64,000 nt of DNA, taken from contig JUEF01000135.1 of the NCBI GenBank assembly GCA_000802045.1, positions 8,287 to 72,286 of the forward strand. The letters are read 5' to 3'. A program made the position numbers and the translations under genes. Below are positions 14,665 to 52,399 of the stretch, in pieces. The notes below the pieces were generated by a model, which was not told the DNA's origin, searched no databases, and worked only from the letters and a program-made list of their open reading frames with translations. The stretch comes from Peptococcaceae bacterium BICA1-8. GTDB taxonomy: Bacteria; Bacillota; Peptococcia; Peptococcales; BICA1-8. The first letter of the stretch is position 1; each line of letters starts with the position of its first letter.

Positions 14665-16002
14665 TTATACTGTTAATACTGGAATTGGGAATATAACGCC
14701 ACTGAGTAGTAACCAAGCAACTAATAAGGTTAATACTAGGTTAAAGCTTTGACCTACAATGTATAACCAAAGTGGCTTACCGCCTTGGACAAGCTCAGCC
14801 ATTTCTTTAAAGTTGGACTCAAGGCCGATACAGACAAATGCCATACAGAAGCACCAGCCCTTCCAGCCACCTGTTAGACCTAATAGAGTTTTTGTTTCTT
14901 TAGCACCAATTGCCGGCTCAACAATAAAGGAGAAGATTAAAGACGCACCAATAAAACCAAGGATAAATTTGGGGAAACGGTGCCAGATTTCATCTGCTCC
15001 CACAGAAGGTCCGTCAACATCTTTCTCAACTTTTGTTGCAAAAAATACAGCAATGGCAAAAGCAATAACACCAATTAATACGTTTTGAATCATTTTAACA
15101 AGAGCAGCAACCTGACCCCCTAGTGGCCCTAATGCTTCACCGGCTAATACAACAGCACCTGTTGCGTCAACTGTACCACCGATCCAAGCACCGCCAACCA
15201 TAGGATCCATACCAATAGCTTTAATAAAGATAGGCATACCAACCATCATTAAAACTGTAAAAATTAAGGATAAGCCAATTGCAAAGGTTAAATCGTCCTT
15301 TTTAGCTTTGGAAGCGGCTGCTGCAGCGATAGCGGCTGAAACACCACAAACAGAAGTAGCAGTAGCGATAACTATTACCATAGGCTTACTGGTCATTTTA
15401 AGTATTTTTGTACCATAATGCCACATGAAAATAATTACGATAGGAGTAACGAACCAAGCAATACCTAAACCATAGATACCAAATTTAACTACATTGGAGA
15501 AAAGAACCTCAGCACCCATTAAAACCAGACCGGTTTTAATGTAGTATTCAGTTTTTACAGCAGGCTTTAACCAATCGGGAGTTTTTACAGTATTACTTAC
15601 TAAAAGACCTACTGCTAATGCCCAGAAAGCATACTCTACATATTTTTTCATAGTTGCTTGAGCACCTAATATATAGGCAATTGTAGCTAAGAGGAATATT
15701 ACAGGGAAGGCAATTGCAAATTTAGGTACGTTTTCGCCCATAAATACTAATCCAATTGAAAAAAGAGCAGTTAATACAACCATTGTGATTAGTAAACTAG
15801 CAATATCAAAAGAACCTAAGAAACTTGGAACCTTTTCGGTTCCCCATGTTGCGATCTTGGATGCATTAAACTTAAAAGCTCCTGTGGATTTACTGATAGC
15901 AGCTATTATAATTACGATAAGTCCAAGCCAAATTGCCCACCAGTCTTCTTTCTTTATTAAATCCGACCATTTAAACTTACTAGCTGTTACGACATCTGAC
16001 AT
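14665..16002 (-). CDS. YeiH/UPF0324 family membrane transporter (putative sulfate-exporter family), paralog 1
   Basis: Polytopic, 445 aa. Start moved to MSDVV (16002) by alignment with the paralogs and a GGAGGTG RBS 8 nt upstream. Confidence 0.9.
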   Translation of the reverse strand: MSDVVTASKFKWSDLIKKEDWWAIWLGLIVIIIAAISKSTGAFKFNASKIATWGTEKVPSFLGSFDIASLLITMVVLTALFSIGLVFMGENVPKFAIAFPVIFLLATIAYILGAQATMKKYVEYAFWALAVGLLVSNTVKTPDWLKPAVKTEYYIKTGLVLMGAEVLFSNVVKFGIYGLGIAWFVTPIVIIFMWHYGTKILKMTSKPMVIVIATATSVCGVSAAIAAAAASKAKKDDLTFAIGLSLIFTVLMMVGMPIFIKAIGMDPMVGGAWIGGTVDATGAVVLAGEALGPLGGQVAALVKMIQNVLIGVIAFAIAVFFATKVEKDVDGPSVGADEIWHRFPKFILGFIGASLIFSFIVEPAIGAKETKTLLGLTGGWKGWCFCMAFVCIGLESNFKEMAELVQGGKPLWLYIVGQSFNLVLTLLVAWLLLSGVIFPIPVLTV

Positions 16003-16383
16003 ATAAAGCACCTCCAAAATTTAAAATATTTTATAGGGTATTTGAACAATTAATTTTTTTAATCCCTCCTTATAATTTAGATAAATAACGCCGCGGTACA
16101 GTCATTGAGCATATTGATGCTGTCATACACACAAATTTAGGGTGTGTTTTAATTATAAGTTATCAAAAAAAATCTTTATATCATTCTTTAATACCATCTT
16201 TATTAAATGCATTAGGAAAATTTATTAATTTAGGAAAAAGCATTTGTTGAACTAAAAAATTAAGATAATGCAGGTAGATGAAATTAGACTAAATCTCATA
16301 ATAATAAAATAAAGAGGCCAGATGGCCGCTTTAAAAGGAAATAATTATTCAATTATCATTTTTCGTAGTAGTAGCATTTTAGT

Positions 16384-16424: not shown

Positions 16425-17768
16425 TTATACTGTTAATACTGGAATTGGGAAGATAACGCCGCTTAGTAATAACCAGGCTACTAATAAGGTTAATACTAAG
16501 TTAAAGCTTTGTCCCACGACATACAGCCAAAGTGGCTTACCACCTTGAACAAGCTCAGCCATGTCCTTGAAGTTAGACTCAAGACCAATTGATACGAAGG
16601 CCATGCAGAAGCACCATGCTTTCCAACTTCCAGATAAGGAAAGTATAGCTTTAGTATCCTTTGTACCTATTGAAGGCTCAACCAAGAAGGAGAATATTAT
16701 CGATCCTACAATAAAACCAAGAATAAATTTAGGGAAACGGTGCCAAATTTCATCGGCGCCCACAGAGGGTCCATCAACATCTTTTTCAACTTTTGTTGCA
16801 AAAAATACGGCAATGGCAAAAGCGATAACACCAATAAGAACGTTTTGAATCATTTTAACCAGAGCAGCAACTTGACCTGCTAATGGCCCTAAGGTTTCTC
16901 CGGCAAGTACAACTGCACCGGTAGCATCAATGGTTCCACCCATCCATGCTCCACCAAGCATCTCATTCATACCAATAGCTTTAATGAACATAGGCATGAA
17001 GACCATCATTAATACGGTGAAGATAAGGGTTAAACCGATGGCAAAGGTTAAGTCTTCTTTCTTTGCTTTAGAAGCAGCGGCAGCGGCAATAGCTGCAGAA
17101 ACCCCGCAAACCGAAGTAGCTGTCGCAATAACGATAACCATAGGTTTGCTGGTCATTTTCAAGATTTTGGTACCATAATACCACATAAAGACTATAACAA
17201 TTGGAGTAACAAACCAAGCAATACCTAGACCGTAGAAACCAAATTTAACAACATTGGAGAATAGTACTTCAGCACCCATCAGTACAAGACCTGTTTTAAT
17301 ATAGTATTCTGTTTTAACGGCCGGCTTTAGCCACTCGGGGGTTTTTACGGTATTACTTACCGCAAGTCCGACCACTAGTGCCCAGAAGGCGTACTCAATA
17401 TATTTTTTCATTGTGGCTTGAGCACCAAATACATAAGCAATTGTTGCTAAGATAAAAACAACAGGGAAGGCGATTAAGAAGCCTTTCACATCTTCTCCCA
17501 TAACTTTAAGACCGAGAGCAAATAATGCACCTAGTACAATTAGACTGAAAATTAATAAGCCTACTTGACCATTAAAAGCATCCATAATGCTAGGCGCCTT
17601 TTCATTTCCCCAAGTAGCTATTTTGGCGGCCTTAAAGGCGAAAGCACCTGTAAATTTACTTATTGCTGCTAAAGCTAATACAATGAATCCAAGCCAAATT
17701 GCCCACCAATCTTCTTTCTTTGTTAAATCAGACCATTTAAACTTACTAGCTGTTACGATATCTGACAT
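16425..17768 (-). CDS. YeiH/UPF0324 family membrane transporter, paralog 2
   Basis: 447 aa. Very similar to paralog 1, including an identical C-terminus LLSGVIFPIPVLTV. Confidence 0.9.
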   Translation of the reverse strand: MSDIVTASKFKWSDLTKKEDWWAIWLGFIVLALAAISKFTGAFAFKAAKIATWGNEKAPSIMDAFNGQVGLLIFSLIVLGALFALGLKVMGEDVKGFLIAFPVVFILATIAYVFGAQATMKKYIEYAFWALVVGLAVSNTVKTPEWLKPAVKTEYYIKTGLVLMGAEVLFSNVVKFGFYGLGIAWFVTPIVIVFMWYYGTKILKMTSKPMVIVIATATSVCGVSAAIAAAAASKAKKEDLTFAIGLTLIFTVLMMVFMPMFIKAIGMNEMLGGAWMGGTIDATGAVVLAGETLGPLAGQVAALVKMIQNVLIGVIAFAIAVFFATKVEKDVDGPSVGADEIWHRFPKFILGFIVGSIIFSFLVEPSIGTKDTKAILSLSGSWKAWCFCMAFVSIGLESNFKDMAELVQGGKPLWLYVVGQSFNLVLTLLVAWLLLSGVIFPIPVLTV

Positions 17769-18499: not shown

Positions 18500-19843
18500 T
18501 TACATTGTTAAATTGGGTATTGGGAAGATAATTCCACTTAACAGCAACCAAGCCACTAAGAGAGTTAATACTAAGTTAAAGGTTTGACCAACAATGTATA
18601 ACATTAATGGCTTGCCGCCTTGTACAAGCTCAGCCATATCTTTAAAGTTAGATTCTAATCCTATACAGGTAAAGGCCAGACAGAAGCACCATCCTCTAAA
18701 GCCTTTAGCTAAGCCCGTAACGCCCTTTGTTCCAGCTGCACCCAAAACGGGTTCTACTATAAAGGAAAAAATGACTGAGGCTGCTATGAAACCAAGGATG
18801 AATTTTGGGAAGCGATGCCAGATTTCACTAGCTCCTACAGCAGGGCCGTCGACATCTTTGTCTACTTTAGTTGCAAAAAATACAGCTATGGCGAAGGCGA
18901 TAACGCCTATAAGTACGTTTTGAATCATTTTAACCATTGCAGCTACTTGACCAGCCAAAGGTCCCAATGCTTCTCCAGCAAGAACAACTGCACCGGTAGC
19001 ATCAATTGTTCCACCCATCCAGGCTCCACCTATCATTTCGTTCATGCCAATAGCTTTAATAATCATAGGCATGAAGATCATCATTATAACTGTAAAAATG
19101 AGGGTTAAACCAATGGCGAAAGTTAAATCTTCTTTTTTAGCTTTAGAAGCTGCAGCAGCGGCAATGGCTGCCGAAACACCACAAACAGAAGTCGCGGTAG
19201 CGATTACAATAATCATGGGTTTGCTAACCATTTTTAATACTCTAGTACCGTAATACCACATAAATATTACTACTATTGGAGTAACAAACCAGGCTATACC
19301 TAATCCGTAAATACCGAATTTTACAATGTTTGAAAAGAGAACTCCAGAACCCATTACAACCAAACCTGTTTTTATATAATACTCTGTCTTAACAGCTGGT
19401 TTTAGCCATTCAGGGGTCTTTATAGTATTGCTAACCAAAAGACCAATAGCCAGCGCCCAAAAAGCGTAGCCTAAATAGTTTTTTATGCCGGCATTAGCTG
19501 AAAAGAGATAGGCTAATGTTGAAAGAATGAATACTACCGGGAAACCAATGAGGAATTTCCCAACATCACCGCCCATTACTTTCAGACCGATAGCGAATAA
19601 AGCGCCTAGTATTATCATTGTTATTAATAATGATGGTAAAGTACCATTAAAGGAATCAAAAATACTAGGTGCTTTCTCTACACCCCAGGTATTAAGTTTA
19701 GCGGCTTTAAAGCTAAAAGTACCAGTAGTAGAACTAATAAATGAGAGAATAAGGATAATAAATCCAAGCCAAATTGCCCACCAATCTTCTTTATTGATAA
19801 GATCTTTCCATTCAAACTTACTAGTCGTTACGACATCAGACAT
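18500..19843 (-). CDS. YeiH/UPF0324 family membrane transporter, paralog 3 (most diverged)
   Basis: 447 aa, collinear with paralogs 1 and 2. AGGAGGTG RBS. Confidence 0.9.
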   Translation of the reverse strand: MSDVVTTSKFEWKDLINKEDWWAIWLGFIILILSFISSTTGTFSFKAAKLNTWGVEKAPSIFDSFNGTLPSLLITMIILGALFAIGLKVMGGDVGKFLIGFPVVFILSTLAYLFSANAGIKNYLGYAFWALAIGLLVSNTIKTPEWLKPAVKTEYYIKTGLVVMGSGVLFSNIVKFGIYGLGIAWFVTPIVVIFMWYYGTRVLKMVSKPMIIVIATATSVCGVSAAIAAAAASKAKKEDLTFAIGLTLIFTVIMMIFMPMIIKAIGMNEMIGGAWMGGTIDATGAVVLAGEALGPLAGQVAAMVKMIQNVLIGVIAFAIAVFFATKVDKDVDGPAVGASEIWHRFPKFILGFIAASVIFSFIVEPVLGAAGTKGVTGLAKGFRGWCFCLAFTCIGLESNFKDMAELVQGGKPLMLYIVGQTFNLVLTLLVAWLLLSGIIFPIPNLTM

Positions 19844-22526: not shown

Positions 22527-23399
22527 ATGGAATTTCCTCAATGGGATATTCTAATTATCGGTTGTGGGCCCGCTGGGCTTTCAGCGGCGGTAAATGCGAC
22601 AATTCGTAACAAAAAGGCAATAGTATATGGCGGAGAGTTTTGCAGTCCCAAGCTTCATAAAGCTCCACATGTCAATAACTATTTAGGTTTCTGGGATGTA
22701 TCAGGAGAAGAATTGCGGAAAAAATATCTCAATCATGTTCAACAGTTAGATATAAAAATGGAATGTCATAAAATTGATAATATTTACCCTGCCGGGAAAT
22801 CTTTTAATGTTGTCAGTAAGGGCAATATGATTATGTGTAATGCAATAATAATTGCAGTAGGCTTGCAAAATCCTAAATACCTGCCAGGAGAAGAGGAACT
22901 GTTGGGCAAGGGTGTGGGTTATTGTGCTACCTGTGATGGCCCTTTGTATAAAGGGAAAAAGGTTGCAGTAATTGGTTATAACACAGAGGCAGAGGAAGAG
23001 GTTAACTATTTGGCCGGGTTAGCTAGCCAAGTTATATATCTTCCGTTGTATCAAGGGCTAGGAAGTATCGACAGTAGAGTTCGAATTTTAAATGAAAGAC
23101 CCAAGGCTCTATTAGGTACAGATAGATTACAAGCACTAGAAACGGAAGGGGAAACCCTAGAACTAGATGGATTATTTATTATTCGGGATAGTGTTCCTCC
23201 AGCTCAGCTTTTGCCTGGCTTGGAGCTTGAGGAAAACGCAATAGTAGTAAATAGAAAAATGTCTACAAATATAACCGGTGTATTTGCTGCCGGTGACTGC
23301 ACCGGTGCCCCTTATCAGCTGGCCAAAGCAGTAGGTGAAGGAGCAGTTGCAGGACTAAGTGCTGTGAGTTATTTGGAAGAAATGAATAAGGGAAAGTAG
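22527..23399 (+). CDS. Thioredoxin-reductase-like flavoprotein with a CATC redox motif but no recognisable NADPH-binding motifs
   Basis: IIGCGPAGLSAA FAD fingerprint and a CATCDG active site. The position of GGGxSA reads GYNTEA, and no HRRxxxR motif follows. Confidence 0.8.
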   Translation: MEFPQWDILIIGCGPAGLSAAVNATIRNKKAIVYGGEFCSPKLHKAPHVNNYLGFWDVSGEELRKKYLNHVQQLDIKMECHKIDNIYPAGKSFNVVSKGNMIMCNAIIIAVGLQNPKYLPGEEELLGKGVGYCATCDGPLYKGKKVAVIGYNTEAEEEVNYLAGLASQVIYLPLYQGLGSIDSRVRILNERPKALLGTDRLQALETEGETLELDGLFIIRDSVPPAQLLPGLELEENAIVVNRKMSTNITGVFAAGDCTGAPYQLAKAVGEGAVAGLSAVSYLEEMNKGK

Positions 23400-23496
23400 G
23401 GGGGCGCATTGCGCGTCCTACCTCATTCTCTTGTGTAATAATCATCCTGTGAATATGATTAGGCATAATCATATGTTTTTCAATAGTAACACCTGC
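23396..23496 (-). pseudogene. Remnant of an IS200/IS605-type (COG1943/RAYT-like) Y1 transposase; HUH strand only
   Basis: The minus-strand frame reads AGVTIEKHMIMPNHIHRMIITQENEVGRAMRPP. MPNHIH is the HUH hallmark. The frame is bounded by a stop upstream and runs into the antisense of the TrxR-like gene. Confidence 0.5.
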
Positions 23497-23570
23497 TCAA
23501 AATTTTGAATCAAATTATCAATTTTTTACTGATATTGGATGACCCACTGACGCGCAATGCGCGCCCCTAC
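23396..23570. mobile_element. 175-bp element bounded by 22-bp inverted REP-like hairpins, containing an HUH-transposase fragment
   Basis: GTAGGGGGGCGCATTGCGCGTC at 23396. The reverse complement of 23549-23570 is GTAGGGGCGCGCATTGCGCGTC (21/22 identical). Confidence 0.65.
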
Positions 23571-23598: not shown

Positions 23599-25389
23599 TC
23601 AGAGCCCGGTATCTTTTTTGAGTAATTCTAAAGCTTTTTCTTCATCAGGTGTAATATAAATGGTTTTTTGGTTTTCATATATTACCATACCTGGTTTTGC
23701 TCCCCCGGGTTTTTTTACATGTTTTCTTAAAGTATAGTCTACAGGTACCTGTGCGGAATAACGTCCCTTGCTATAATAGGCTGCAAGATTAGCGGCTGTG
23801 TCTAAGATGCTTTTGGGAATTTCTTTTTTATCAGGATTTTTAATAATTACATGGGAACCTGGGATATCCTTGACGTGGAGCCATAAGTCATCATTCTTAC
23901 CTAACTTAAAAGTTACATAGTCATTTTGTTTGTTGTTTTTTCCAAGCAATATCTTATAATCTGAAATAGCAATTGCTAGGGGCTCTGACTGAGCATTACT
24001 TTTAACCTTATTTTTATTTTTTTGCGGCCGGGCTTTAACATACCCGGCTTCTTCTAATTCCCATCTAATATCCTGCAGATCCTGGGGATTATCAGATCCA
24101 TCTAGACTATTCTTAATGCTTTCCAAATAACCTAATTCTTCAATTGTGATTTTGCTTTGTTCAAGGGTTTTTTCGGAACCTACTTTGGCTTTACTGTACT
24201 TTTTAAAATACTTTTGCGCATTTTCATTAGGCGTTAAGTTTGGTTCTAGAGTAATAGCAATATTCTCCAATTCCTCTGAGTAAAAATTGGAAACTATTGC
24301 CTCTTGCCCTTGCTTGAGATTGTGCAAATTTGCAGTAATAAGTTCTCCCCATAATTTATATTTGGCGGCTATCTCAACCTCTGCGATTTTTTCCAGCTGC
24401 AGAGCTAATTTACGCTGGCAGCGGTCTAGTTCTCTATCAATTATTTTATCTAGGTCTCCGGATTTTTGTTTAAAGAAATTTGTTTCCTCACTTTTACCGA
24501 TGAAAGATTCTATCAAATCACCCATAGAAGAATGTGTTTCTTGTACTAAACCGTCAAACTGCTGCAAGGAAAAGGGAGCAAAAGCAAAAGGCTTGCCCTC
24601 AGTATCTCTGACAAGTGTTGGTTGGTATGTCTGGGATAATATCAGGGTTTTTAACCAGTTTAGACTTTTCCAAAGACTTAAGTATTCATATTCACCTAAA
24701 AATTCCAGACTGTTTTCCAAATCAATTCCAGCTCGAACAGTTAATTCTTTAGCCGTTTGGGGTCCAAAACCTTCCATTATATTAAGTAAAGCTTTATGAA
24801 CCTTTTGTTCGGGGGGCAGATTTTGAAATCTCTCAACTAGGGTTTCTTCAGTTATTTCCTCAAGCTTAACTTTTTCCTGGGGTGGTGGAGAAATATAAGG
24901 GGCCCCCGGTAGTATTTCGCGGTATTGATTTACTGCATGACTTAAGCGTTTAATACTATCAAGAATTATTCTTTCGTTTTGTTTTATCAAAATTAGATTA
25001 CTGTGTTTTCCCATAAACTCTCCGATGAGAATTTTACTCACCTTATCTCCTAATTCATCAAAACCTTCTAATATAAAGTGAACAATTCTTTCTAAACCTT
25101 GTTGTTCAATATTTACAATTTTACTACCTTCTAGGTGCTTTCTCAGAACCATACAAAACAAGGGGGGCTGGAGAGGGTTTTGTCTGGCAGTATTGGTTAA
25201 ATTGAAGCGAGCACTTTGGGGTTTTACGGTAATTAAAAGCCGTAGGTTTTTACCTGGCTGTCTAATTGTCATAACTAGAGTATTGTGATCAGGCTGTTGT
25301 ATCTTATCTATTCTACCGCCAATTAACTGAGGCTTCAGTTCATCAACTAAAGCTCTTATGGCTATACCGTCTAATGACAAGTTAGTCAC
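23599..25389 (-). CDS. rqcH: NFACT-family ribosome quality control protein (fibronectin-binding protein A / YloA)
   Basis: 596 aa. N-terminus LDGIAIRALVDEL...RIDKIQQP and a C-terminal DUF814-type region. AGGAGGTG RBS. yloA-yloB synteny. Confidence 0.85.
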   Translation of the reverse strand: MTNLSLDGIAIRALVDELKPQLIGGRIDKIQQPDHNTLVMTIRQPGKNLRLLITVKPQSARFNLTNTARQNPLQPPLFCMVLRKHLEGSKIVNIEQQGLERIVHFILEGFDELGDKVSKILIGEFMGKHSNLILIKQNERIILDSIKRLSHAVNQYREILPGAPYISPPPQEKVKLEEITEETLVERFQNLPPEQKVHKALLNIMEGFGPQTAKELTVRAGIDLENSLEFLGEYEYLSLWKSLNWLKTLILSQTYQPTLVRDTEGKPFAFAPFSLQQFDGLVQETHSSMGDLIESFIGKSEETNFFKQKSGDLDKIIDRELDRCQRKLALQLEKIAEVEIAAKYKLWGELITANLHNLKQGQEAIVSNFYSEELENIAITLEPNLTPNENAQKYFKKYSKAKVGSEKTLEQSKITIEELGYLESIKNSLDGSDNPQDLQDIRWELEEAGYVKARPQKNKNKVKSNAQSEPLAIAISDYKILLGKNNKQNDYVTFKLGKNDDLWLHVKDIPGSHVIIKNPDKKEIPKSILDTAANLAAYYSKGRYSAQVPVDYTLRKHVKKPGGAKPGMVIYENQKTIYITPDEEKALELLKKDTGL

Positions 25390-25436
25390 CTCCTAATTTG
25401 CAAGTATACCATATTACTCACGGGTTTAGCTAGCAG

Positions 25437-25574
25437 GTCGGAAATACTTAGGGTCTAGCTTGAGCGTCTGACAATACTATGGGGACAAATTGTTGCGTCT
25501 GACATCGCTAATGGGTTGAGTTTTAGGGTCTGACAGTACTATGGGGACATTTTATTGCGTTTGACACTAGCTTT
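25437..25574 (+). repeat. Array of five ~31-bp units with GTCTGACA core (direct orientation)
   Basis: Core starts at 25437 (degenerate), 25466, 25497, 25528 and 25559. Spacings are 29, 31, 31 and 31 bp. Confidence 0.9.
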
Positions 25575-25584
25575 GAGATTTTTT

Positions 25585-25660
25585 CTGGGTACTGAACCCT
25601 GGGCCCTGGACACTAAGCACTTGAACACCGAGCACTTGAGCACAGCGCTCTGGACACGAA
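25585..25660 (+). repeat. CTGGG(T/C)ACTG...GGACACGAA low-complexity cassette (GAGCACT/GGACACT words)
   Basis: CTGGGTACTGAACCCTGGGCCCTGGACACTAAGCACTTGAACACCGAGCACTTGAGCACAGCGCTCTGGACACGAA. Confidence 0.85.
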
Positions 25661-25772
25661 TTTATCAGACGAGATATCTTCGCCCAGAAGTATGATCCCA
25701 GAAGTAAATGTCATTTTTCCCTTGATATTTGAATAAAAATTACTTAGTACTCTGCAAAGTGAGGGGAAACTT

Positions 25773-28526
25773 ATGGCAAATAGATTTTGGTACAATATGC
25801 ATGATTTAAAAGTTTTAGAAGAATTTCAGGTTGATGTAAAAAAGGGTCTAGACTCAAAAGAGGCTCAGCGCAGGTTGGAGTTGGTGGGTTTTAATCAATT
25901 GCGGGAAAAAGTAAAAACATCACCAATTAAAATGTTTTTTAATCAGTTCAAGGATTTTATGGTTATCGTGCTTTTAGCAGCTACAATTATCTCTGGTTTT
26001 TTAGGGGAGTATGCTGATGCTATTACCATAATGGCTATAGTCATTCTTAATTCAATTTTAGGTTTTGTGCAGGAATACCGAGCAGAGAAGTCTATGGAAG
26101 CTTTAAAAAAATTAATAGCTCCTGAAGCAATGGTTATCAGAGATGGTATAGAAAAGAAAATCCCTGCCCGGGAACTAGTTCCAGGTGAACTGGTTTTATT
26201 AGAAACCGGTGTTATAATTCCTGCGGATTTGCGTTTATTAGAAACAATTCAAATGGAAATAGAAGAATCTTCTTTGACTGGTGAATCTGTTCCTGCTAAA
26301 AAAATAGCCAGTGCAATATTTGAAACAAATACCAGCTTAGGTGATAGGAAGAATATGGCCTATATGGGTACTACCGTAACCCGGGGCAAAGGAATGGGCA
26401 TAGTTGTTGATACTGGTATGCAAACGGAAATGGGGCAGATTGCGGGACTAATTCAAAAGGTTGGTGATGAACAAACTCCGCTCCAAAGAAGGTTAGAACA
26501 ATTAGGCAGATGGCTAGTAGCTTTTTGTCTGTTAATTGTGCTGGTAGTTGTTGTTACAGGAATTCTCCGGGGTGAGCCTATTTACCAAATGTTCTTAGTG
26601 GGAGTCAGTCTGGCGGTGGCTGCTATTCCTGAAGGATTGCCTGCAATTGTTACAATTGCTTTAGCCGTAGGAGTTCAAAAAATGCTTAAAAGAAGAGCAA
26701 TTATTAGGAAGCTGCCTGCAGTAGAAACCTTGGGATGTGCCACAGTAATATGTTCTGATAAAACAGGTACCCTTACTCAAAATGAGATGACAGTGCGCAG
26801 GATTGTTATTAGTAATGAAACAATTCAAATTACAGGGGAAGGTTATGATCCTAAAGGAGAGGTGGTTGTTCCCGGGGATAAATCCCGTATGATGAGGAAT
26901 AAGGAATCCTTAAATATAGCCTTTAAAATTGCCGCCTTGTGTAATAACTCAAAGCTAAGAAAAACAGAAACAGTTATAGCCGGAATTTTTAGAAAGAAAA
27001 GCTCGAATCCTTGGCAGGTTTTAGGAGACCCCACTGAAGGAGCTCTCCTAGTTTTAGCAGCAAAAGCAGGTTTTTGGAGAGAACGTGTAGAAAAAGATGA
27101 GCAAAGAGTTTATGAAATGCCCTTCGATTCTGAACGCAAGAGAATGTCTGTTATCTATCAAAATAAAGATAAGCTTAACATTTATACCAAAGGGGCCCCG
27201 GATATTGTATTAGAAAATTGCAAATATGTTTGGTGGGAAGGGAAAATCGTTCTTTTAAACCGAGAACTAAAACAAAAAATATTAGAAAATAATGATAAGA
27301 TGGCTAATGAAGCCCTTCGAGTTTTAGCTCTAGCTTATAAACAAATTTCTGCCAATTTTGACTATGAAAGAAATGAGGCAGAGATTGAAAATGACCTGAT
27401 TTTTGTAGGATTAGCTGGAATGATTGATCCGCCCCGTCCTGCAGCAATTAAAGCTGTAGCTGTATGTAAAAACGCAGGGATAAAAACAGTTATGATAACC
27501 GGGGACCATAAAATCACTGCCCAGGCAATTGGTAAAGAACTAAAAATTTATAATGATCAGGACCTTATTTTAACGGGCAGCCAATTAGATGAAATGCCAG
27601 ACCCGGAATTAAATAAAATTATTAATAATGTAACCGTTTATGCCAGAGTATCACCAAAACATAAGCTCAGGATTGTTAAAGCCCTCAAAAAGCGGGGACA
27701 TGTGGTTGCAATGACAGGGGACGGAGTAAATGATGCCCCAGCAATTAAAGAGGCGGATATTGGAATTTCCATGGGAATAAATGGTACCGATGTAACAAAG
27801 GAATCTTCCTCTATGATTTTAGGGGATGATAATTTTGCAACTATTGTAGCTGCCGTTGAGGAAGGTCGGGCTATTTATGATAATATCAGGAAATTCATTA
27901 GATATCTTTTATCCTGTAATGTAGGTGAAGTTTTAACAATGTTTTTTGCTTCATTATTGGGATTGCCTTTGCCTTTATTGCCAATACAGATATTGTGGGT
28001 TAACTTAGTAACTGATGGATTGCCAGCAATGGCTTTAGGTGTTGATACAGCTGATCCTGATATCATGTACAGAAAACCTAGACATCCGAAAGAAAGCATT
28101 TTTGCCTATGGCTTGGCTAGACGCATAGCAGTAAGGGGAACATTAATAGGTGTCGGTACCCTTTTAGTATTTATGATAGGTTATTACTTAAATAAGAATT
28201 TAGATATAGCTAGAACTATGGCTTTTACAACACTTGTTTTCTCCCAGCTGTTTCATGTTTTTGATTGTCGTTCGGAAAAATATTCTATTTTTGAATTAGG
28301 CTTTTTCACCAACCCATTTTTAGTAGGCGCCGTAAGCTGTTCGGTAATAATGCATTTAATGGTAATTTATTTACCCTTTTTCCAAAAAATATTCAAAACT
28401 ACTCCTCTCTCTTTTAATAGCTGGCTGATTATAATTGCCGTTTCCGGTGGGTTAACAATTATGCAGAACGTGTATCGGAGCTTGAAAAGATATTATTTGA
28501 ATTTAGGGAGAACATTAAGGGCTTGA
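25773..28526 (+). CDS. yloB: P-type Ca2+-transporting ATPase (SERCA/YloB type)
   Basis: CSDKTGTLT phosphorylation motif plus TGDGVNDAPA, TGES and PEGL motifs. 917 aa. Confidence 0.9.
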   Translation: MANRFWYNMHDLKVLEEFQVDVKKGLDSKEAQRRLELVGFNQLREKVKTSPIKMFFNQFKDFMVIVLLAATIISGFLGEYADAITIMAIVILNSILGFVQEYRAEKSMEALKKLIAPEAMVIRDGIEKKIPARELVPGELVLLETGVIIPADLRLLETIQMEIEESSLTGESVPAKKIASAIFETNTSLGDRKNMAYMGTTVTRGKGMGIVVDTGMQTEMGQIAGLIQKVGDEQTPLQRRLEQLGRWLVAFCLLIVLVVVVTGILRGEPIYQMFLVGVSLAVAAIPEGLPAIVTIALAVGVQKMLKRRAIIRKLPAVETLGCATVICSDKTGTLTQNEMTVRRIVISNETIQITGEGYDPKGEVVVPGDKSRMMRNKESLNIAFKIAALCNNSKLRKTETVIAGIFRKKSSNPWQVLGDPTEGALLVLAAKAGFWRERVEKDEQRVYEMPFDSERKRMSVIYQNKDKLNIYTKGAPDIVLENCKYVWWEGKIVLLNRELKQKILENNDKMANEALRVLALAYKQISANFDYERNEAEIENDLIFVGLAGMIDPPRPAAIKAVAVCKNAGIKTVMITGDHKITAQAIGKELKIYNDQDLILTGSQLDEMPDPELNKIINNVTVYARVSPKHKLRIVKALKKRGHVVAMTGDGVNDAPAIKEADIGISMGINGTDVTKESSSMILGDDNFATIVAAVEEGRAIYDNIRKFIRYLLSCNVGEVLTMFFASLLGLPLPLLPIQILWVNLVTDGLPAMALGVDTADPDIMYRKPRHPKESIFAYGLARRIAVRGTLIGVGTLLVFMIGYYLNKNLDIARTMAFTTLVFSQLFHVFDCRSEKYSIFELGFFTNPFLVGAVSCSVIMHLMVIYLPFFQKIFKTTPLSFNSWLIIIAVSGGLTIMQNVYRSLKRYYLNLGRTLRA

Positions 28527-28552
28527 CATTTACTCACAGGTTAATATATTGG

Positions 28553-28655
28553 GTCTGACATATGCTTGGGGGTGAAATATCGCGTCTGACAATACTCCTG
28601 GGTGAACATTTTGCGTCTGACATTTTACTTTTGGGTTGAGATGCTGCGTCTGATG
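28553..28655 (+). repeat. Array of four ~31-bp GTCTGACA units (direct orientation)
   Basis: Cores at 28553, 28584, 28615 and 28648 (the last reads GTCTGATG). Confidence 0.9.
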
Positions 28656-28658
28656 AAT

Positions 28659-28696
28659 GGTGCTCTGTGCTCAGTGCTCAGTGTCCAGTGCCCAGT
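28659..28696 (-). repeat. Heptamer block GTGCTCA/GTGTCCA, the inverted copy of the CTGGGCACTGGACACTGAGCAC cassette
   Basis: The reverse complement reads ACTGGGCACTGGACACTGAGCACTGAGCACAGAGCACC. Confidence 0.85.
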
Positions 28697-28707
28697 AAAA
28701 AACTAAT

Positions 28708-28872
28708 AAAGCTAGTGTCAGACGCAATAAATTGTCCCCATAGTACTGTCAGACCTTACAGCTTAACCCATGAGTAATTGTCAGACGCCCAAGCTAGACC
28801 CTTGAGTATTGTCCGACCCTAAAACTTAACCTATAAGTAGATGTCAGAAACGCAAAAGCTAGACCCCTAAGT
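28708..28872 (-). repeat. Array of five ~31-bp GTCTGACA units in inverted orientation
   Basis: TGTCAGAC-type cores at 28716, 28747, 28779, 28810 (TGTCCGAC) and 28842. 28708-28755 is 46/48 identical to the reverse complement of 25527-25574. Confidence 0.9.
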
Positions 28873-28885
28873 AGAAAGGAAGTGT

Positions 28886-29734
28886 TTGAGAGTGAATTTT
28901 GTAAAAATGCATGGAGCAGGAAATGATTTTATTTTAATTAATTTATTAGAGGGAAATTCGCCGTTAGATTATTCCTTACTGGCTCCTAAGCTTTGCGACC
29001 GGAATTTTGGAATTGGTGCTGATGGACTTTTGTTCATTATGCCTTCCGAGACCGCTGATATTAAAATGAGGATTATTAATTCCGATGGTAGTGAAGCTGA
29101 AATGTGTGGTAATGGTATTAGATGTTTTGCAAAATTTGTTTATGAAGAGGGAATAATTAATAAAAATATAATAGAAGTAGAAACCCTAGCGGGTAAAATC
29201 ATCCCGGAAATTATTTTAAATAATAACAAAGTAGCTTCTGTCCGAGTTGATATGGGTGAGCCTAAGCTAGAAAGAAGCCAAATTCCAATGTTTGGAGAAG
29301 AGGGACGGGTAATTAAGGAGAAGTTAGTGATTGCTGAGAAAGAATTTGAAGTCACTGCTGTTAGTATGGGTAATCCCCATTGCGTTATTTTTGTACCTAA
29401 TATAAAAGAGATAGAAATAGAAAAATGGGGTCCTTTAATTGAAAAGCATCCAGTTTTCCCCCGAAAAACAAATGTAGAATTTGTCCAAGTTATTACCCCC
29501 TCTGAGGTTGTTATGCGAGTATGGGAAAGGGGTGCAGGCATAACTTTAGCCTGTGGTACAGGAGCGTGTGCAACCTTAACTGCGGGTGTTCTAAATAATT
29601 ATATTAATAGGAAGGCTTCTATAAAATTACTTGGTGGTGAATTAACTGTTGAATGGGAAGAAAATAATCACCTCTATATGACAGGTCCGGCGATTGAAGT
29701 ATTTCGCGGGGTAATTAGTATAGGTAGTCTATAG
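28886..29734 (+). CDS. dapF: Diaminopimelate epimerase
   Basis: FVKMHGAGNDF N-terminus and catalytic Cys motifs (MCGNGIRC, ACGTGACA). Start is TTG 28886 or GTG 28892. Confidence 0.9.
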   Translation: MRVNFVKMHGAGNDFILINLLEGNSPLDYSLLAPKLCDRNFGIGADGLLFIMPSETADIKMRIINSDGSEAEMCGNGIRCFAKFVYEEGIINKNIIEVETLAGKIIPEIILNNNKVASVRVDMGEPKLERSQIPMFGEEGRVIKEKLVIAEKEFEVTAVSMGNPHCVIFVPNIKEIEIEKWGPLIEKHPVFPRKTNVEFVQVITPSEVVMRVWERGAGITLACGTGACATLTAGVLNNYINRKASIKLLGGELTVEWEENNHLYMTGPAIEVFRGVISIGSL

Positions 29735-29773
29735 TCGATAGTCCATAATCGATAATTATAGCGAAAATTAGCT

Positions 29774-29799
29774 AAAAAACGCCGCTTTGGCGTTTTTTT
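29774..29799 (+). terminator. Intrinsic terminator after dapF
   Basis: AACGCC-GCTTT-GGCGTT followed by T7. Confidence 0.85.
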
Positions 29800-29902
29800 A
29801 TGCAGGAAATATTTTTTTAAAAGAGAATTGTTTCCATTATGCTTGATTTACTAGGTTTTGGTTAATTATAGTATATATATTTAATTTTAGGAGGAATAAA
29901 AT

Positions 29903-30778
29903 ATGCGCAGTATGACAGGTTATGGGCGTGGGGAAGCTGAGAACTTCGCTAAAAAGTTTATAGTAGAAATAAAATCAATTAATCATAGATATTCAGAAAT
30001 TATTGCTAAGCAGCCCAGACAGTATATGTTATTAGAGGATAATATCAGACGGTTGGTACAAAAATATATTCAGCGGGGTAGGGTAGAAATTTATTTTAAA
30101 GTAGAAGAAACAGGAGCAAAAAAACCAGAGATTAAAGTTGACAAAGACAATGCCATAGCTTATTATAAGTCTTTGAAGGATTTGGCTAGTTATCTTGAAA
30201 TTCCCCCAAATATCAATATTCACCAGTTAGTGGCTTTACCTGAAGTCATAAAATTAGAAGAGCTAGAAGAGGATTTGGCTGATATTTGGACAGTAATGGA
30301 GACAGCACTCACCAAAGCTCTCAATCAACTCATTGAAATGCGGCAAACAGAAGGGGAAGCCTTAAAAAATGATCTCAAACAGCGGATTCTTCTTTTAAAA
30401 AAATTTAGTGAGCAAATAAGTGCCCGAGGTCCGGTGGTAATAGAGGAGTATCGAGAAAAATTAAAGGTAAGGATTAAAGAATTATTGGATGAGACCCAGT
30501 ATGACGAAAATAGATTAACACAAGAAATTGTCTATATTGCTGAAAAATGCAGCATTACTGAAGAATTAGTTCGCCTAGAAAGCCATTATAAACAATTTAT
30601 AGATTCCTTAGGTTCAAGTGAAAGTGTTGGACGCAAGCTGGATTTTCTCGTTCAGGAATTGAATAGGGAAACTAATACAATAGGTTCTAAGTCCAACGAT
30701 TTAGAAATTTCTCAGATTGTTGTGGATATGAAGAGTGAAATAGAGAAAATTAGAGAACAGGTACAGAATATAGAATGA
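29903..30778 (+). CDS. yicC: YicC/YloC family endoribonuclease
   Basis: MRSMTGYGRG N-terminus and C-terminal DUF1732-type motif LVQELNRETNTIGSK. Confidence 0.85.
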   Translation: MRSMTGYGRGEAENFAKKFIVEIKSINHRYSEIIAKQPRQYMLLEDNIRRLVQKYIQRGRVEIYFKVEETGAKKPEIKVDKDNAIAYYKSLKDLASYLEIPPNINIHQLVALPEVIKLEELEEDLADIWTVMETALTKALNQLIEMRQTEGEALKNDLKQRILLLKKFSEQISARGPVVIEEYREKLKVRIKELLDETQYDENRLTQEIVYIAEKCSITEELVRLESHYKQFIDSLGSSESVGRKLDFLVQELNRETNTIGSKSNDLEISQIVVDMKSEIEKIREQVQNIE

Positions 30779-30888
30779 AATAGTGTGACGGCTATGTGGC
30801 TTACTGAATGACAGTGTGTAAGCTTAAGGGATATACAAATTGTCAGTGCTACAGTGCTACAGAAATTTAGTTGGTTTGTTTATTCTCC

Positions 30889-30916
30889 TAGTCACTAGTC
30901 ACTAGTCACCAGTAAC
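30889..30916 (+). repeat. Heptamer tandem TAGTCAC x3 plus a degenerate fourth unit, 18 nt upstream of the remA start
   Basis: TAGTCACTAGTCACTAGTCACCAGTAAC. An octamer pair AGTGCTAC x2 lies at 30845-30860. Confidence 0.9.
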
Positions 30917-30933
30917 TATATAAGGAGGGCAAA

Positions 30934-31209
30934 ATGGGTATTAAATTGATAAATATTGGATTTGGAAATATTGTTTCCGCCAACAGAATTGTAGCAATTG
31001 TCAGTCCTGAGTCTGCTCCTATAAAAAGAATAATTCAGGAAGCCCGGGATAGGGGTATGTTAGTAGATGCAACATATGGCCGAAGGACTAGGGCTGTAGT
31101 TATTACTGACAGTGACCATGTTATACTTTCCGCAGTCCAACCAGAAACTGTTGCCCATCGGTTGGCAGCTAAGGATGCTCCGGTACATAATGAAGAGCAG
31201 GAAGATTAA
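30934..31209 (+). CDS. remA: RemA/YlzA (DUF370) regulator
   Basis: [32 protein letters not shown] is the highly conserved RemA N-terminus. Confidence 0.85.
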
Positions 31210-32035: not shown

Positions 32036-32086
32036 GTCTATTAGTGGGCGAGACTTTTGGGGAATCGATGGAGGGCAGTTTTATGG

Positions 32087-32240
32087 GATGCATCTACTCA
32101 TAGGCTTTACTGCAAGATGCATCAGATGAATGCCAATTTTTTTGATGCATCCTTTAAGTTAGACCGCAGAGCAGATGCCTCAATAGGATTTTACATGCAT
32201 AGGATGCATCCCAAAATGTATGCCAAAATAGGATTCTAGG
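32087..32240 (+). repeat. ~29-bp periodic array with GATGCATC palindromic core
   Basis: Cores at 32087, 32116, 32144, 32174 (GATGCCTC) and 32203. Preceded by TATTAGTGGGCGAG at 32038-32051. Confidence 0.85.
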
Positions 32241-32284
32241 TTGATTGAAATATTGACCAGTAACTATGATTGGGGTTTTTCCTA

Positions 32285-34708: not shown

Positions 34709-34966
34709 TATTAAACCACGGGCCCCAATGGGGCACACGGATAAATGTCCTGTTCTATCAGGTATTCTTTGTAGGGGCGCGCATTGCGCGTCCGACTTCA
34801 CTTCTTAGTCCATAATATGCTAAAATACAATTAACAAAAAATATCACCATGGACCATTCGCCAAACTAACATGACACAAAACGTCATCAACAGAATATGA
34901 ATATAGTTTAATCCCTAAATAATTAATCTGCGTTAACCGTGTGCCCTGTAGGGGCCCGTGGTTTGA
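34709..34966. mobile_element. Second MITE/BIME-like element (258 bp) with the same inverted ends as 8620-8810 and a nested GTAGGGGCGCGCATTGCGCG hairpin
   Basis: Left end is ATTAAACCACGGGCCCCAATGGGGCACACGGATA. The reverse complement of the right end is ATCAAACCACGGGCCCCTACAGGGCACACGGTTA. The interior is unrelated to the 8.6-kb copy. Confidence 0.6.
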
Positions 34967-34979
34967 TAAAATGCTTTTT

Positions 34980-35048
34980 CTGGGCACTGGACACTGAGGA
35001 CTGGTCACGAACCCCGAAAATTTCTACGGACTCGCCCACTCGCCCACT
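34980..35048 (+). repeat. CTGGGCACTG...CACGAACCCCGAAAA cassette plus octamer pair CGCCCACT x2, ending 25 nt before the priA start
   Basis: CTGGGCACTGGACACTGAGGACTGGTCACGAACCCCGAAAATTTCTACGGACTCGCCCACTCGCCCACT. Confidence 0.85.
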
Positions 35049-37532: not shown

Positions 37533-37561
37533 CAATAGACAATAGACAATAGACCAAAGAC
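37533..37561 (+). repeat. Heptamer tandem CAATAGA x3 plus a degenerate unit, in the priA-def spacer
   Basis: CAATAGACAATAGACAATAGACCAAAGAC, followed by a TGTCCCCAGTCATTA word. Confidence 0.9.
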
Positions 37562-37604
37562 CATTCTATATGTCCCCAGTCATTAATCGTTAGGAGAGAG
37601 CAAG

Positions 37605-49991: not shown

Positions 49992-50011
49992 TATATTAAA
50001 GTTAATAATTT

Positions 50012-50121
50012 ACTCTTTCGGGGTTAGGTGCAATTCCTTACCGGCGGTATAGCCCGCGAGCCAAATGGCAGATCCGGTTTAATTCCGGAGCCGACAGTTA
50101 AAGTCTGGATGGAAGAAAGAG
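50012..50121 (+). promoter_or_regulatory. FMN riboswitch (RFN element) aptamer
   Basis: Matches the RFN core: CTCTTTCGGGGTTAGGTGCAATTCCTTACCGGCGGT..AGCCCGCGAGCC...GGTTTAATTCCGGAGCCGACAGTTAAAGTCTGGATGGAAGAAAGAG. The P1 stem closes CTCTTTC with GAAAGAG. Confidence 0.92.
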
Positions 50122-50176
50122 ATTGATTACTATTCATTGCATTTTTGCTTTTGAATGGTAATTATCTTGTTTTATT

Positions 50177-50212
50177 GCCCCGAAGCTCTTATTGCTTCGG
50201 GGCTTATTTGTG
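50177..50212 (+). terminator. Riboswitch expression-platform terminator
   Basis: GCCCCGAAGC-TCTTATT-GCTTCGGGGC followed by TTATTTGTG. Confidence 0.75.
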
Positions 50213-50214
50213 TA

Positions 50215-50500
50215 GTTTTATTAGTGGGCGAGTGGGCGAGAAGTATTATTTAACCACGGGCCCCTCCGGGGCACACCGATAAACACTGTTAAACGATAAG
50301 TGACTAAATTAATGGTTGATGCATCCCTTAAGTTAGACCTTTGAGCAGATGCATCCTGTAATTTTCACTTGCATCGGGTGCCTCCTAATCGGTGACACGG
50401 TAGCACGTCAAGGAAAGCTAGACATTCATGTTCACACGTCCTTACTAGTCACAGATCCCCGGCCACTGAGTACGAATCCCGAAAGACTGTCCCCTAATAC
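50215..50500 (+). repeat. Composite of dispersed repeat modules between the riboswitch terminator and ribU
   Basis: TAGTGGGCGAGTGGGCGAG (50222-50240). Solo ATTTAACCACGGGCCCCTCCGGGGCACACCGAT end (50248-50281). GATGCATC units (50318, 50348). AAGCTAGAC, TAGTCAC, TACGAATCCCGAAAG and TGTCCCC words (50415-50495). Confidence 0.85.
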
Positions 50501-50523
50501 AAAAAACGAGGAGCGATTTTAAA

Positions 50524-51087
50524 ATGACTACAAAAATTTTAGCAAGGATTTCATTACTAGCGGCATTTGGGCTTATTCTGCAGTTTTTTAGCTTTCCATT
50601 ACCATTTTTTCCAGAATACCTTCGTTATGATGCAGCCGAGGTTCCGGCACTTATTGCAGCCTTTGCCATTGGTCCTTGGGCTGGAGTATTGGTGGATTTA
50701 GGAAAAAATCTACTTTCTTTTCTAATTGGTAATGCTCCTGCTGGCATAATCGGAATTACAGCTAATTTTATTGCTGGTGCAACATTCGCTTTTGTTGCTG
50801 GGGTAATTTACTCTATAAATAAAACTAAAGGCAGGGCTGTCTTTGCACTAAGCTGTGGTGTTATTGCCACTACAATAGTAATGGTTGTATCTAATTATTA
50901 TTGGCTTTTACCCTTATGGGGAATACCCAGAAATGCTATCTTGCCATTATTAACTGCATCAATAATCCCCTTTAATCTTTTTAAAGGGGGCTTAACAGGC
51001 TTATTTACTTTTGTTCTTTATAAAAAAGTAAAAGGTTATTTAGAACCGGCGGTAAGTCGGAAAAATGAAGCCTTGGCGGAAAAATAA
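50524..51087 (+). CDS. ribU: ECF-transporter S component for riboflavin (RibU/YpaA type)
   Basis: 187-aa six-TM protein downstream of an FMN riboswitch. GAGGAG RBS. Confidence 0.8.
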   Translation: MTTKILARISLLAAFGLILQFFSFPLPFFPEYLRYDAAEVPALIAAFAIGPWAGVLVDLGKNLLSFLIGNAPAGIIGITANFIAGATFAFVAGVIYSINKTKGRAVFALSCGVIATTIVMVVSNYYWLLPLWGIPRNAILPLLTASIIPFNLFKGGLTGLFTFVLYKKVKGYLEPAVSRKNEALAEK

Positions 51088-51096
51088 GTTACTGGC

Positions 51097-51125
51097 TAGT
51101 GACTAGTGACTAGTGACTGGTGACT
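51097..51125 (-). repeat. Heptamer tandem TAGTGAC x3 plus TGGTGAC (reverse complement of the TAGTCAC family)
   Basis: TAGTGACTAGTGACTAGTGACTGGTGACT. Confidence 0.9.
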
Positions 51126-51131
51126 GGTAAT

Positions 51132-51166
51132 AAGGCTATAGTCCATTGACTATAGTCTATAGCCTT
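51132..51166. repeat. Perfect 10-bp-stem hairpin made of CTATAG words (possible weak ribU terminator)
   Basis: AAGGCTATAG-15 nt-CTATAGCCTT. Contains the ATAGTCCAT word also seen at 29739, 34808 and 52453. Confidence 0.6.
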
Positions 51167-51276
51167 TAGCCGATAGTCAATAGACTATAGTAGAAGTTTT
51201 TAATGACCTGCTTAGCAGGTCTTTTCTTTATCATAAATTGACTATATACTGATTGTTTTTCATAAAGGTCCTTTAT

Positions 51277-51347
51277 CTGGGCACTAGTCACTGAACAACT
51301 AGTCACTGAACAACTAGTCACTGAACAACTGGACACGAAACCAAAAA
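51277..51347 (+). repeat. CTGGGCACT cassette containing an exact 15-bp tandem repeat x3, ending GGACACGAAACCAAAAA
   Basis: AGTCACTGAACAACT at 51286, 51301 and 51316 (exact copies). Confidence 0.95.
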
Positions 51348-51522
51348 TTAGCACAATCACCAGTCATTAGTTACTAATAACCATTGACCATCAACTATCG
51401 TCCAGCGTCCCCAACAAAGCTATTTCTTGTCTTATCCAGATTCTTGTATTAAACTAGTATATGTTTGCAATTATAATAACAAATAACAACTATTAGCTTA
51501 ATTGTACTTGGAGGTTGAATTA

Positions 51523-52395: not shown

Positions 52396-52399
52396 ATAG

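Follow-up and report, generated by a model that had tools for sequence, protein, structure and literature searches.

The 64-kb window analysed here, to which all array counts below refer unless another genome is named, comes from BICA1-8, a metagenome-assembled genome (MAG) of an uncultured member of the Peptococcaceae (Bacillota, Clostridia), and the YicC protein that it encodes is identical to one listed for 'Peptococcaceae bacterium BICA1-8'. At 30779-30933 the window holds a spacer between a YicC-like gene (29903-30778) and remA (30934-31209), and remA is followed on its 3' side by gmk, rpoZ, coaBC, metK, priA, def and fmt. Two short tandem arrays, both on the plus strand, occupy this spacer. 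In its first half the octamer CAGTGCTA (reverse complement ACTGTAGC) is repeated 2.4 times at 30844-30862. At 30888-30918, three CTAGTCA units and one CCAGTAA(CTA) unit run into a conserved end, CAGTAACTA; read in the register TAGTCAC, the exact units lie at 30889-30909 and a degenerate CAGTAAC at 30910-16. This second array stops 7 nt 5' of the remA Shine-Dalgarno (SD) sequence, GGAGG (30924-28), and the ATG follows at 30934. A search of the plus strand of the spacer for a promoter or a terminator found neither. As RNA, the remA array is predicted to be unstructured (z=-1.3), and the whole spacer gives z=+0.67. An anti-SD hairpin, in which CUCC at 30884-87 could pair with the SD and leave the array as the loop (z=-1.3), was considered and dropped because the CUCC is missing from two related genomes, L124 and L122.

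Tandem heptamers of this kind are in excess in the window, and the excess is confined to spacers. With dinucleotide shuffles as the null, the ~7.3 kb of spacer left after masking long open reading frames (ORFs) contains 7 exact period-7 tandems of at least two units (0.97 +/- 1.08 in shuffles) and 3 exact period-8 tandems (0.20 in shuffles), while periods 4-6 and 9-12 occur in the spacers as often as expected. The 56.7 kb of coding sequence shows no period-7 excess (3 against 4.4 expected). Allowing up to two mismatches, CTRGTCA x2 has 26 matches compared with 0.81, a number reached in 0 of 100 shuffles, and exact arrays of at least 21 nt are nearly absent from local shuffles (means 0.0-0.2). 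The first-pass annotation of this DNA had named a density no higher than that of shuffled intergenic sequence as a refuting outcome; the density lies far above it, and the observation is confirmed as real and statistically solid; the tandems it listed are all present, within 0-2 nt of where it put them. It had also reported the word ATAGTCCAT at four sites, of which one falls away because position 34808 reads TTAGTCCAT; the three exact sites (29738, 51138 and 52454) compare with 0.66 expected, which is weakly significant and barely beyond chance. Inspection by eye and a scan with degenerate units gave about 15 arrays, which all sit in spacers of the 25-62 kb part of the window, with none in the first 25 kb. 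Tandem Repeats Finder and counts of exact tandems placed period-7 arrays at 28660, 30888, 37533, 51096, 51136 and 61557. The unit families are few: AC[TC]RRNC, ATAGNC and ACTCGCCC.

The arrays are not limited to the genome of this window. Syntenic spacers of four related genomes, compared singly, carry them (YicC identity 87% in L124, 84% in L122, 79% in L125 and 75% in L127). For the remA array, which ends in CAGTAACTA before the SD, the unit number is 3+1 (window), 5+1 (L124) or 4+2 (L122); in L125 and L127 other short repeats stand in its stead. The octamer CAGTGCTA has two copies in the window and three in L122 (10930-10959). Just 3' of the rpoZ stop codon, the window has a lone AGTGGGCG unit (32039-32050, plus strand), which we read as a collapsed array because the orthologous site has three units in both L124 and L122. 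Similarly, ACTCGCCC x2 lies 5' of priA in the window and in L122, and the spacer 5' of coaBC carries full arrays in L124 and L122 and a remnant in the window. Orthologous arrays differ between species by whole units and by T/C changes inside units. Since positions are kept while unit number changes, the arrays are inherited in place and gain or lose whole units, a pattern characteristic of slippage. The relatives, too, show a predominance of period 7, with 9 arrays in 10 kb of L124, which carries CCATAGA x11, and 4 arrays plus one octamer array in L122. The yicC-remA spacer of L125 (10928-11031) is a near-perfect palindrome of four TTCATAG-type units, a central hairpin and four CTATGAA-type units (RNA z=-2.67), an architecture like that of the window's spacer made of unrelated units.

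The arrays are built into two types of module with conserved non-repeat ends, which occur in at least 10 spacers and in both orientations; the modules and arrays located from here on lie on the plus strand unless they are called reversed (minus strand). Type A consists, in order, of a T-run, TCTGGGCAC, (CTGRNCA)n and CACGAAnCCCGAAAA. At 25583-25665 such an element (T-run, CTGGGTAC, mixed 7/8-nt units, end TGGACACGAA) forms the centre of a palindrome of 31-nt units 5' of a P-type ATPase gene. Another, at 34974-35024, reads TTTTTCTGGGCAC TGGACAC TGAGGAC TGGTCAC GAACCCCGAAAA and lies 5' of priA (RNA z=-0.25), and a third, at 59310-59360, reads TTTCTGGGCAC TGAACAC CAGTCAC CGGGCAC GATAACCCGAAAAA and lies 5' of the gene for the gamma subunit of oxaloacetate decarboxylase (OAD-gamma). 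A degenerate copy with the end TACGAATCCCGAAAG is found at 50444-50486 in the leader of the gene for an energy-coupling factor (ECF) transporter S-component, and the element at 51272-51347 is a 15-mer (ACTAGTC ACTGAAC A) repeated 3.2 times with the end TGGACACGAAACCAAAAA. The reversed type A array at 28655-28702 (reverse complement ACTGGGC ACTGGAC ACTGAGC x2 ACAGAGC), preceded by an A-run and including GTGCTCA-type x5 at 28660-96, sits at the tip of a ~300-nt hairpin, and the identical layout recurs at 8663 in L122 and 8655 in L125. Type A is also present in L122, in L125 and in a metagenome locus, L179.

Type B consists of (ATAGNC-type)n, an A/T linker, (AC[CT]AGTC)n and AGTAACTA. Besides the remA array at 30888, the window has a reversed copy at 51088-51191, directly past the ECF S-component gene's stop codon, made of GTTACTGG, CTAGTGA x3, CTGGTGA (these four units at 51096-128), CTGGTAA, a linker and CTATAGT-type x8, and a remnant (GACCAGTAACTATGA) at 32254-32269, 5' of coaBC; several copies are found in L122 and L124. 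L179 carries one element of each type, A and then B, directly 5' of the ribD SD. Relative to neighbouring genes, we counted 17 forward and 6 reverse arrays, which are not independent observations. Forward arrays lie upstream of starts, and reverse arrays lie after stop codons or at the centres of palindromes. Folding predictions leave the forward arrays unstructured as RNA (z from -1.3 to +2.3), whereas post-stop arrays fold well: 51088-51191 forms two hairpins (z=-4.0), and 61551-96 reaches z=-7.5. Arrays also lie past intrinsic terminators, such as that of metK in L124, L122 and L127, and within the transporter-gene leader that carries a flavin mononucleotide (FMN) riboswitch. These sites argue against a single RNA-level role that would suit every copy.

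In general kind the arrays resemble repeats described elsewhere. The STRRs (short tandemly repeated repetitive sequences) are 7-bp repeats that can form hairpins between genes and whose function is unknown (PMC2670836). The arrays that heterocystous cyanobacteria carry are, like ours, short, dispersed between genes and in some cases hairpin-forming, and the tandem amplification of heptanucleotides that defines them is found here also. The host in our case is a member of the Peptococcaceae and not a heterocyst-forming cyanobacterium, octamers are mixed in, and types A and B have conserved non-repeat ends. The STRR1-3 consensus units, reportedly given by Mazel et al. in 1990 as CCCCAGT, TTGGTCA and CAACAGT, are not matched by the window units TAGTCAC, CAGTCAC, CTGGNCA, CAATAGA and CTATAGT; the best agreements are 6/7 (CTGGTCA with TTGGTCA, ACTGGGC with ACTGGGG). 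The likeness to STRRs drawn by the first-pass annotation therefore holds for style, that is, dispersed intergenic tandem heptamers with some octamers, and fails for strict membership, in unit sequence and in taxon.

The TAACTGA repeats of a Beggiatoaceae genome, 169 sets of which lie mostly just 5' of start codons, with further examples in cyanobacteria and Bacteroidetes (MacGregor 2015, PMC4679880), are likewise intergenic heptamer direct repeats that occupy many loci, reach beyond one phylum and have no known function. They come in 2-6 copies, often a few nt 5' of the starts of unrelated, partly essential genes, as some of ours do. There, one unit predominates, mostly in one orientation, and replaces the canonical SD, whereas in the window the unit families are several and occur in both orientations, a normal GGAGG is retained 3' of the array and many arrays lie after stops. 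Placement immediately before ribosome-binding sites, claimed for these repeats in the first-pass annotation, applies to about 4 of the 15 window arrays (30888, 35030, 61557 and, loosely, 37533), the rest following stops or terminators or lying in mid-spacer; with so few arrays abutting an SD, with GGAGG retained and with units other than TAACTGA, they are not repeats of the TAACTGA type. In Geobacter metallireducens, multicopy elements of 4-5 tandem heptanucleotides (GGACCGG, MTYCTGA) or octanucleotides (GTTGCTYN) were read by the authors, without tests, as regulator sites or regulatory RNAs (PMC2700814). These too are dispersed families of tandem 7- or 8-nt units at tens of loci, often in opposite-strand pairs; the units and the taxon are different, and some Geobacter elements lie within genes. 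In the study by Mrazek, Guo and Shah (2007), summarised in PMC4679880, heptanucleotides made up the commonest class of long simple-sequence repeat (SSR) in prokaryotes; by that summary, repeats of 5-11-nt units (LSSR5-11) are found in non-pathogens, are phylogenetically scattered and are excluded from genes where the unit is not a multiple of three, and a link to polymerase slippage was proposed. The window arrays share this heptanucleotide predominance and the 5-11-nt units, and they are longer or more numerous than composition predicts. The summarised class is purely statistical, and the summary does not cover modular elements with conserved ends.

The arrays are also widespread. An exact scan for (CTRGTCA)x3, with one genome per species, yielded at least 120 loci, where chance alone would give about 2. 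Among the matches listed, arrays of three or more units come from more than 15 phyla, with about 36 loci in Cyanobacteria (Scytonema, Chroococcidiopsis, Aliterella, Rivularia and Microcystis carry CT(A/G)GTCA arrays), about 20 in Bacteroidota and 9 in Bacillota (Dialister, Acidaminococcus, Eubacteriales, Clostridia and a Peptococcaceae MAG); the remaining ones belong to Chloroflexota, Gemmatimonadota, Verrucomicrobiota, Planctomycetota, Chlorobi, Vulcanimicrobiota and others. The 852 kb flanking the matches listed contain further arrays of at least three copies, 102 of period 7, 21 of period 4, 12 of period 8 and 1 to 4 each of periods 5, 6 and 9. At the Dialister loci, AGTCACT, AGTCCCC, GGGTTCA and CCTAATC arrays adjoin one another, and AGTCCCC corresponds to the STRR1 unit reportedly given by Mazel et al. 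In viral contigs CTRGTCA x3 has 24 loci, compared with 10, 4, 4 and 6 for four permuted control units, so that the unit is favoured there without being unique. When the cross-phylum loci are read as TGACYAG, 51 of 131 have a long open frame whose end lies no more than 30 nt upstream, compared with 16 of 131 in the opposite reading; this bias is suggestive and is confounded by the TGA within the unit. The first-pass annotation had judged the genome to be of Firmicutes type, which is right, since its source belongs to the Bacillota, and had called such repeats unexpected there, which overstates the case given the 9 Bacillota loci among the matches listed. Because period-7 arrays, CTRGTCA included, are widespread, the surprise value of these is limited; our literature search found no paper on heptamer arrays in Firmicutes.

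The window arrays are best explained as long SSRs of 7-nt, and some 8-nt, units, STRR-like in general kind, in one Peptococcaceae lineage. The account we favour, with a probability of roughly 0.55, is that modules spread among spacers and that their arrays turn over by slippage, most copies probably being functionless and post-stop copies perhaps forming protective hairpins. In support of this, the period-7/8 excess is restricted to spacers, array positions are conserved while copy number changes, and the same ends occur at unrelated loci and in different genomes. The presence of both orientations, the lack of a shared function among the downstream genes, the absence of an Rfam match, the unstructured forward arrays, the folding of post-stop arrays and the period-7 bias across phyla also speak for it. 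A few seed modules would have spread between spacers via recombination or some mobilising activity, and single arrays would then grow, shrink and decay through slipped-strand mispairing at replication, where loops of 7-8 nt would evade mismatch repair. Coding DNA would be purged of units that are not a multiple of three, so that the repeats would remain in spacers. Most copies would be neutral or near-neutral filler carried into 5' or 3' untranslated regions; those after stop codons would form hairpins that could shield 3' ends, in the manner of repetitive extragenic palindromic (REP) sequences, and those abutting an SD would determine the leader sequence, with no regulatory effect demonstrated. 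Slippage-type explanations, and the lack of a known function, are also what the literature offers for heptamer repeats (PMC4679880, PMC2670836).

Several observations weigh against this account. The first-pass annotation had suggested slipped-strand variation between isolates, yet near-identical assemblies show no change in copy number: L122 and L123 are identical, as are L127 and L128, and L125 and L126 differ by 33 substitutions, with 0 indels. These pairs thus give no evidence of high instability, and turnover can be seen between species-level relatives only. For an exact 20-mer from the head of type A, a scan of the metagenome collection gave a single locus, so that a high genome-wide copy number is unproven. 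Slippage alone explains neither the preference for period 7 over 5, 6 and 9 nor the conserved non-repeat ends. Finally, the persistence of SD-adjacent arrays in three species and the forward bias upstream of genes (17:6) could reflect selection.

The main rival of the account we favour holds that the arrays are cis platforms to which a trans-acting protein binds, recognising a short motif at 7-nt intervals and tuning the translation or transcription of flanking genes; we regard it as possible but doubtful. An array adjoins the remA SD in three species, as arrays do the SDs of def, coaBC and priA in relatives, and the modules directly before the ribD SD in L179 and the orientation bias fit this placement. 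The conserved ends of the elements suggest constraint, and many units (TAGTCAC, CAATAGA, CCATAGA, GTAGAAT) present TAG every 7 nt. At the RNA level there are proteins with a comparable mode of recognition: the HutP hexamer reads UAG-N4-UAG-N4-UAG, and TRAP, or stacked cold-shock domains spanning about 7 nt apiece, offer further analogues. At the DNA level, 'global regulator sites' of 4-5 tandem heptamers or octamers were proposed in the genome paper on Geobacter metallireducens (PMC2700814), and MacGregor (2015) argues likewise for TAACTGA upstream of starts (PMC4679880). It also counts in favour that CTRGTCA x3 is about 4 times commoner than its permuted controls in viral contigs. Against a binding platform, arrays occur in both orientations, past terminators and in mid-spacer, and the unit at one and the same position differs between species (CAATAGA and ACCAGTC at def; TTCATAG in L125 at remA). 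Moreover, the downstream genes (remA, priA, def, coaBC, the ATPase gene, hslO, OAD-gamma and the ECF transporter component) have no common function, predicted SD accessibility is not consistently affected (mixed in 10 cases), and no candidate binding protein was identified, the likeness to HutP and cold-shock proteins being a putative analogy.

More specific functions were considered and set aside. For an unstructured leader or ribosome standby site, we compared the unpaired probability of SD and start between native and array-shuffled sequence at 10 junctions; the native value exceeded the shuffled one at 3, fell below it at 2 and equalled it at 5, which does not support the idea. A structured RNA was rejected on the z-scores of the yicC-remA spacer given above and of the type A elements (-0.95 to +2.3) and on Rfam 15, whose sole match in the window is the FMN riboswitch, with nothing in 25300-31000 at E<=1. 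Three copies of a heptamer that bears a stop codon would close all three reading frames; a hand tally puts a sense stop in about 60% of unit types, compared with about 39% by composition. The types are not independent, the frequent units CAGTCAC, CTGGNCA and ACTCGCCC lack a stop, and such a cassette is unconvincing. A likeness of CTGGGCAC-N- to sigma-54 promoters was rejected by eye, as it reads TGGGCAC and not TGGCAC and has no TTGC at the right spacing.

Alternatively, types A and B could be non-autonomous mobile elements, resembling miniature inverted-repeat transposable elements (MITEs), REP sequences and the bacterial interspersed mosaic elements (BIMEs) they form, or the small dispersed repeats of Nostoc, with the transposase encoded elsewhere, the heptamers internal or terminal, and the spacers simply the sites where insertion is tolerated. 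A mobile origin of the modules overlaps with the account we favour; as a full explanation it seems rather unlikely. It would account for conserved non-repeat ends at unrelated loci, in several genomes and in both orientations, and the same spacers are full of other repeats (the MITE-like elements at 8620-8810 and 34709-34968, the 22-nt pair of 23396-23570 and the 31-nt-unit palindromes, described below). Modules spanning ~310 nt are inserted between the FMN riboswitch and its gene. Assemblies based on k-mers break at the arrays: Logan contigs of SRR1539101 start or end within TAGTCAC-type arrays (at 51301 and 61590 of the window, the ends of L129), which fits identical repeat stretches of at least 31 nt elsewhere in the genome or sample. 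Neither terminal inverted repeats nor target-site duplications were seen on types A and B, however, and the window holds no transposase, the RAYT type included. No clean pair of filled and empty sites was found among the relatives, the priA spacer of L122 having a degenerate element of equal length, and the type A 20-mer occurs only once in the metagenome collection. Spacer mosaics of short modules in alternating orientation are shared with REP/BIME systems, as would be the stabilisation of 3' ends by the post-stop hairpins; enterobacterial REP units are imperfect palindromes of ~35 nt and not tandem heptamers.

A broader proposal is that the arrays of this Peptococcaceae lineage, of Dialister and of many other phyla, the STRRs and the TAACTGA repeats are products or targets of one shared, period-7-specific mechanism. 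Candidates are an enzyme activity that generates repeats and a widespread protein that binds nucleic acid and recognises a short core at 7-nt intervals. We consider this improbable. If it were true, the type A and B elements beside ribosome-binding sites would be functional sites and not junk. Heptamer arrays have been known in cyanobacteria since 1990 and later proved the commonest class of long SSR, and neither the 7-nt preference nor their function has been explained. The window adds a lineage of the class Clostridia in which arrays can be tracked at orthologous positions through gain and loss of whole units, with ends that mark dispersed modules; it offers a usable comparative system and, on present evidence, reveals no new mechanism.

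That the arrays are phase-variation (contingency) loci, in which unit number switches the downstream gene, is very improbable. The SSRs do have a promoter on one side and a start codon on the other, and their unit number does vary between species, but the genes concerned (remA, priA, def, coaBC) serve housekeeping and neither the cell surface nor virulence, the arrays comprise no more than 2-5 units and are thus short, the organism, represented by a MAG only, is a free-living anaerobe, and the absence of indels in all three near-identical assembly pairs leaves such a reading unsupported. Chance or assembly artefact, which the MAG source and the tendency of short-read assemblers to mis-size repeats might have suggested, is refuted by the large excess (7 against 0.97 and 26 against 0.81), by homologous arrays in independent samples and assemblies (JGI 3300001682, JGI 3300031485, GCA_049323895.1 and Ga0209643) and by arrays shorter than a sequencing read.

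The other arrays of the window are more heterogeneous. At 29725-29754, four TAGTCNA/TAATCGA heptamers lie between the stop codon of dapF and a terminator and overlap the end of the gene; the array starts within the last codons of dapF, whose stop TAG (29732-34) is part of the second unit. The octamer ACTCGCCC is repeated 2.4 times at 35030-35048, 10 nt 5' of the priA SD, and is kept in L122; its complement, AGTGGGCG, is repeated 2.2 times at 50223-50240, past the terminator of the FMN riboswitch. Downstream of priA, at 37533-37563, CAATAGA x3 and two degenerate CCAAAGA units begin 15 nt past the stop codon and end ~29 nt before the def SD, where L124 has CCATAGA and GAATGTA arrays. A degenerate heptamer run (ACCAGTC ATTAGTT ACTAATA ...) occupies 51359-51411, and at 52399-52475 TTGAGAA x2 (52400-14) and ATAGTCC/ATCGAC-type units lie between the hslO stop codon and a bidirectional terminator. 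The hexamer TAAGGC x3 at 59265-59283 (exact units 59265-82) lies past a terminator-like hairpin and is intergenic, since the OAD-gamma gene starts at ~59405. At 61551-61596, AAAAAAGTGACTAGTCACCAGTCACTAGTAACTAGTCACTTTTTT arranges heptamers as a perfect A-run/T-run hairpin ~20 nt 5' of a 68-aa ORF.

The spacers of the window hold further repeats. Units of 31-32 nt (TGTCAGACGC...ACCC...AGTA and complement), in direct and then inverted arrays, flank the P-type ATPase gene at 25440-25740 and 28527-28885; the latter block folds into one ~300-nt hairpin (-127.8 kcal/mol, z=-8.4) with the heptamer array at its tip. Four related genomes share this layout, with blocks at 5317-5776 and 8534-8911 in L122, 8600-8852 and 17132-17271 in L125, and 5684-6219 in L127, and has no Rfam match. 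The MITE-like elements at 8620-8810 and 34709-34968 have inverted ends of 36-42 nt (ATTTAACCACGGGCCCC...GGGCACACGGATA), 86% complementary and 107-188 nt apart, and a lone end of this kind lies at ~50245 (50245-50290). A second inverted-repeat element, at 23396-23570 between two convergent genes, has 22-nt ends (GTAGGGGGGCGCATTGCGCGTC / GACGCGCAATGCGCGCCCCTAC) that are 95% complementary, and a related end sits at 34772-34795, within the element of 34709-34968. The palindrome-containing motif (G)GATGCATC(C) recurs every 20-45 nt in a pair of unrelated spacers, at 32080-32230, between rpoZ and coaBC, and at 50310-50395, in the riboflavin transporter leader. That leader (50010-50524) begins with the FMN riboswitch (116.8 bits), whose terminator is followed by ~310 nt before the ECF S-component gene begins, an unusually long distance for an expression platform; the gap contains the octamers, the MITE end, the GATGCATC cluster and the type A element. 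Three tandem paralogues on the minus strand (14665-16017, 16425-17768 and 18500-19843) encode proteins of 447-450 aa of family PF03601 (Cons_hypoth698, YeiH-like membrane proteins); they run opposite to nearly all genes of the window, and their spacers are AT-rich and without heptamer arrays. The spacer at 1859-2030 contains three copies of a unit of ~50-55 nt (GGGACACACCTCC...GAGGAATGTCCC), and the Logan contig L130 ends there.

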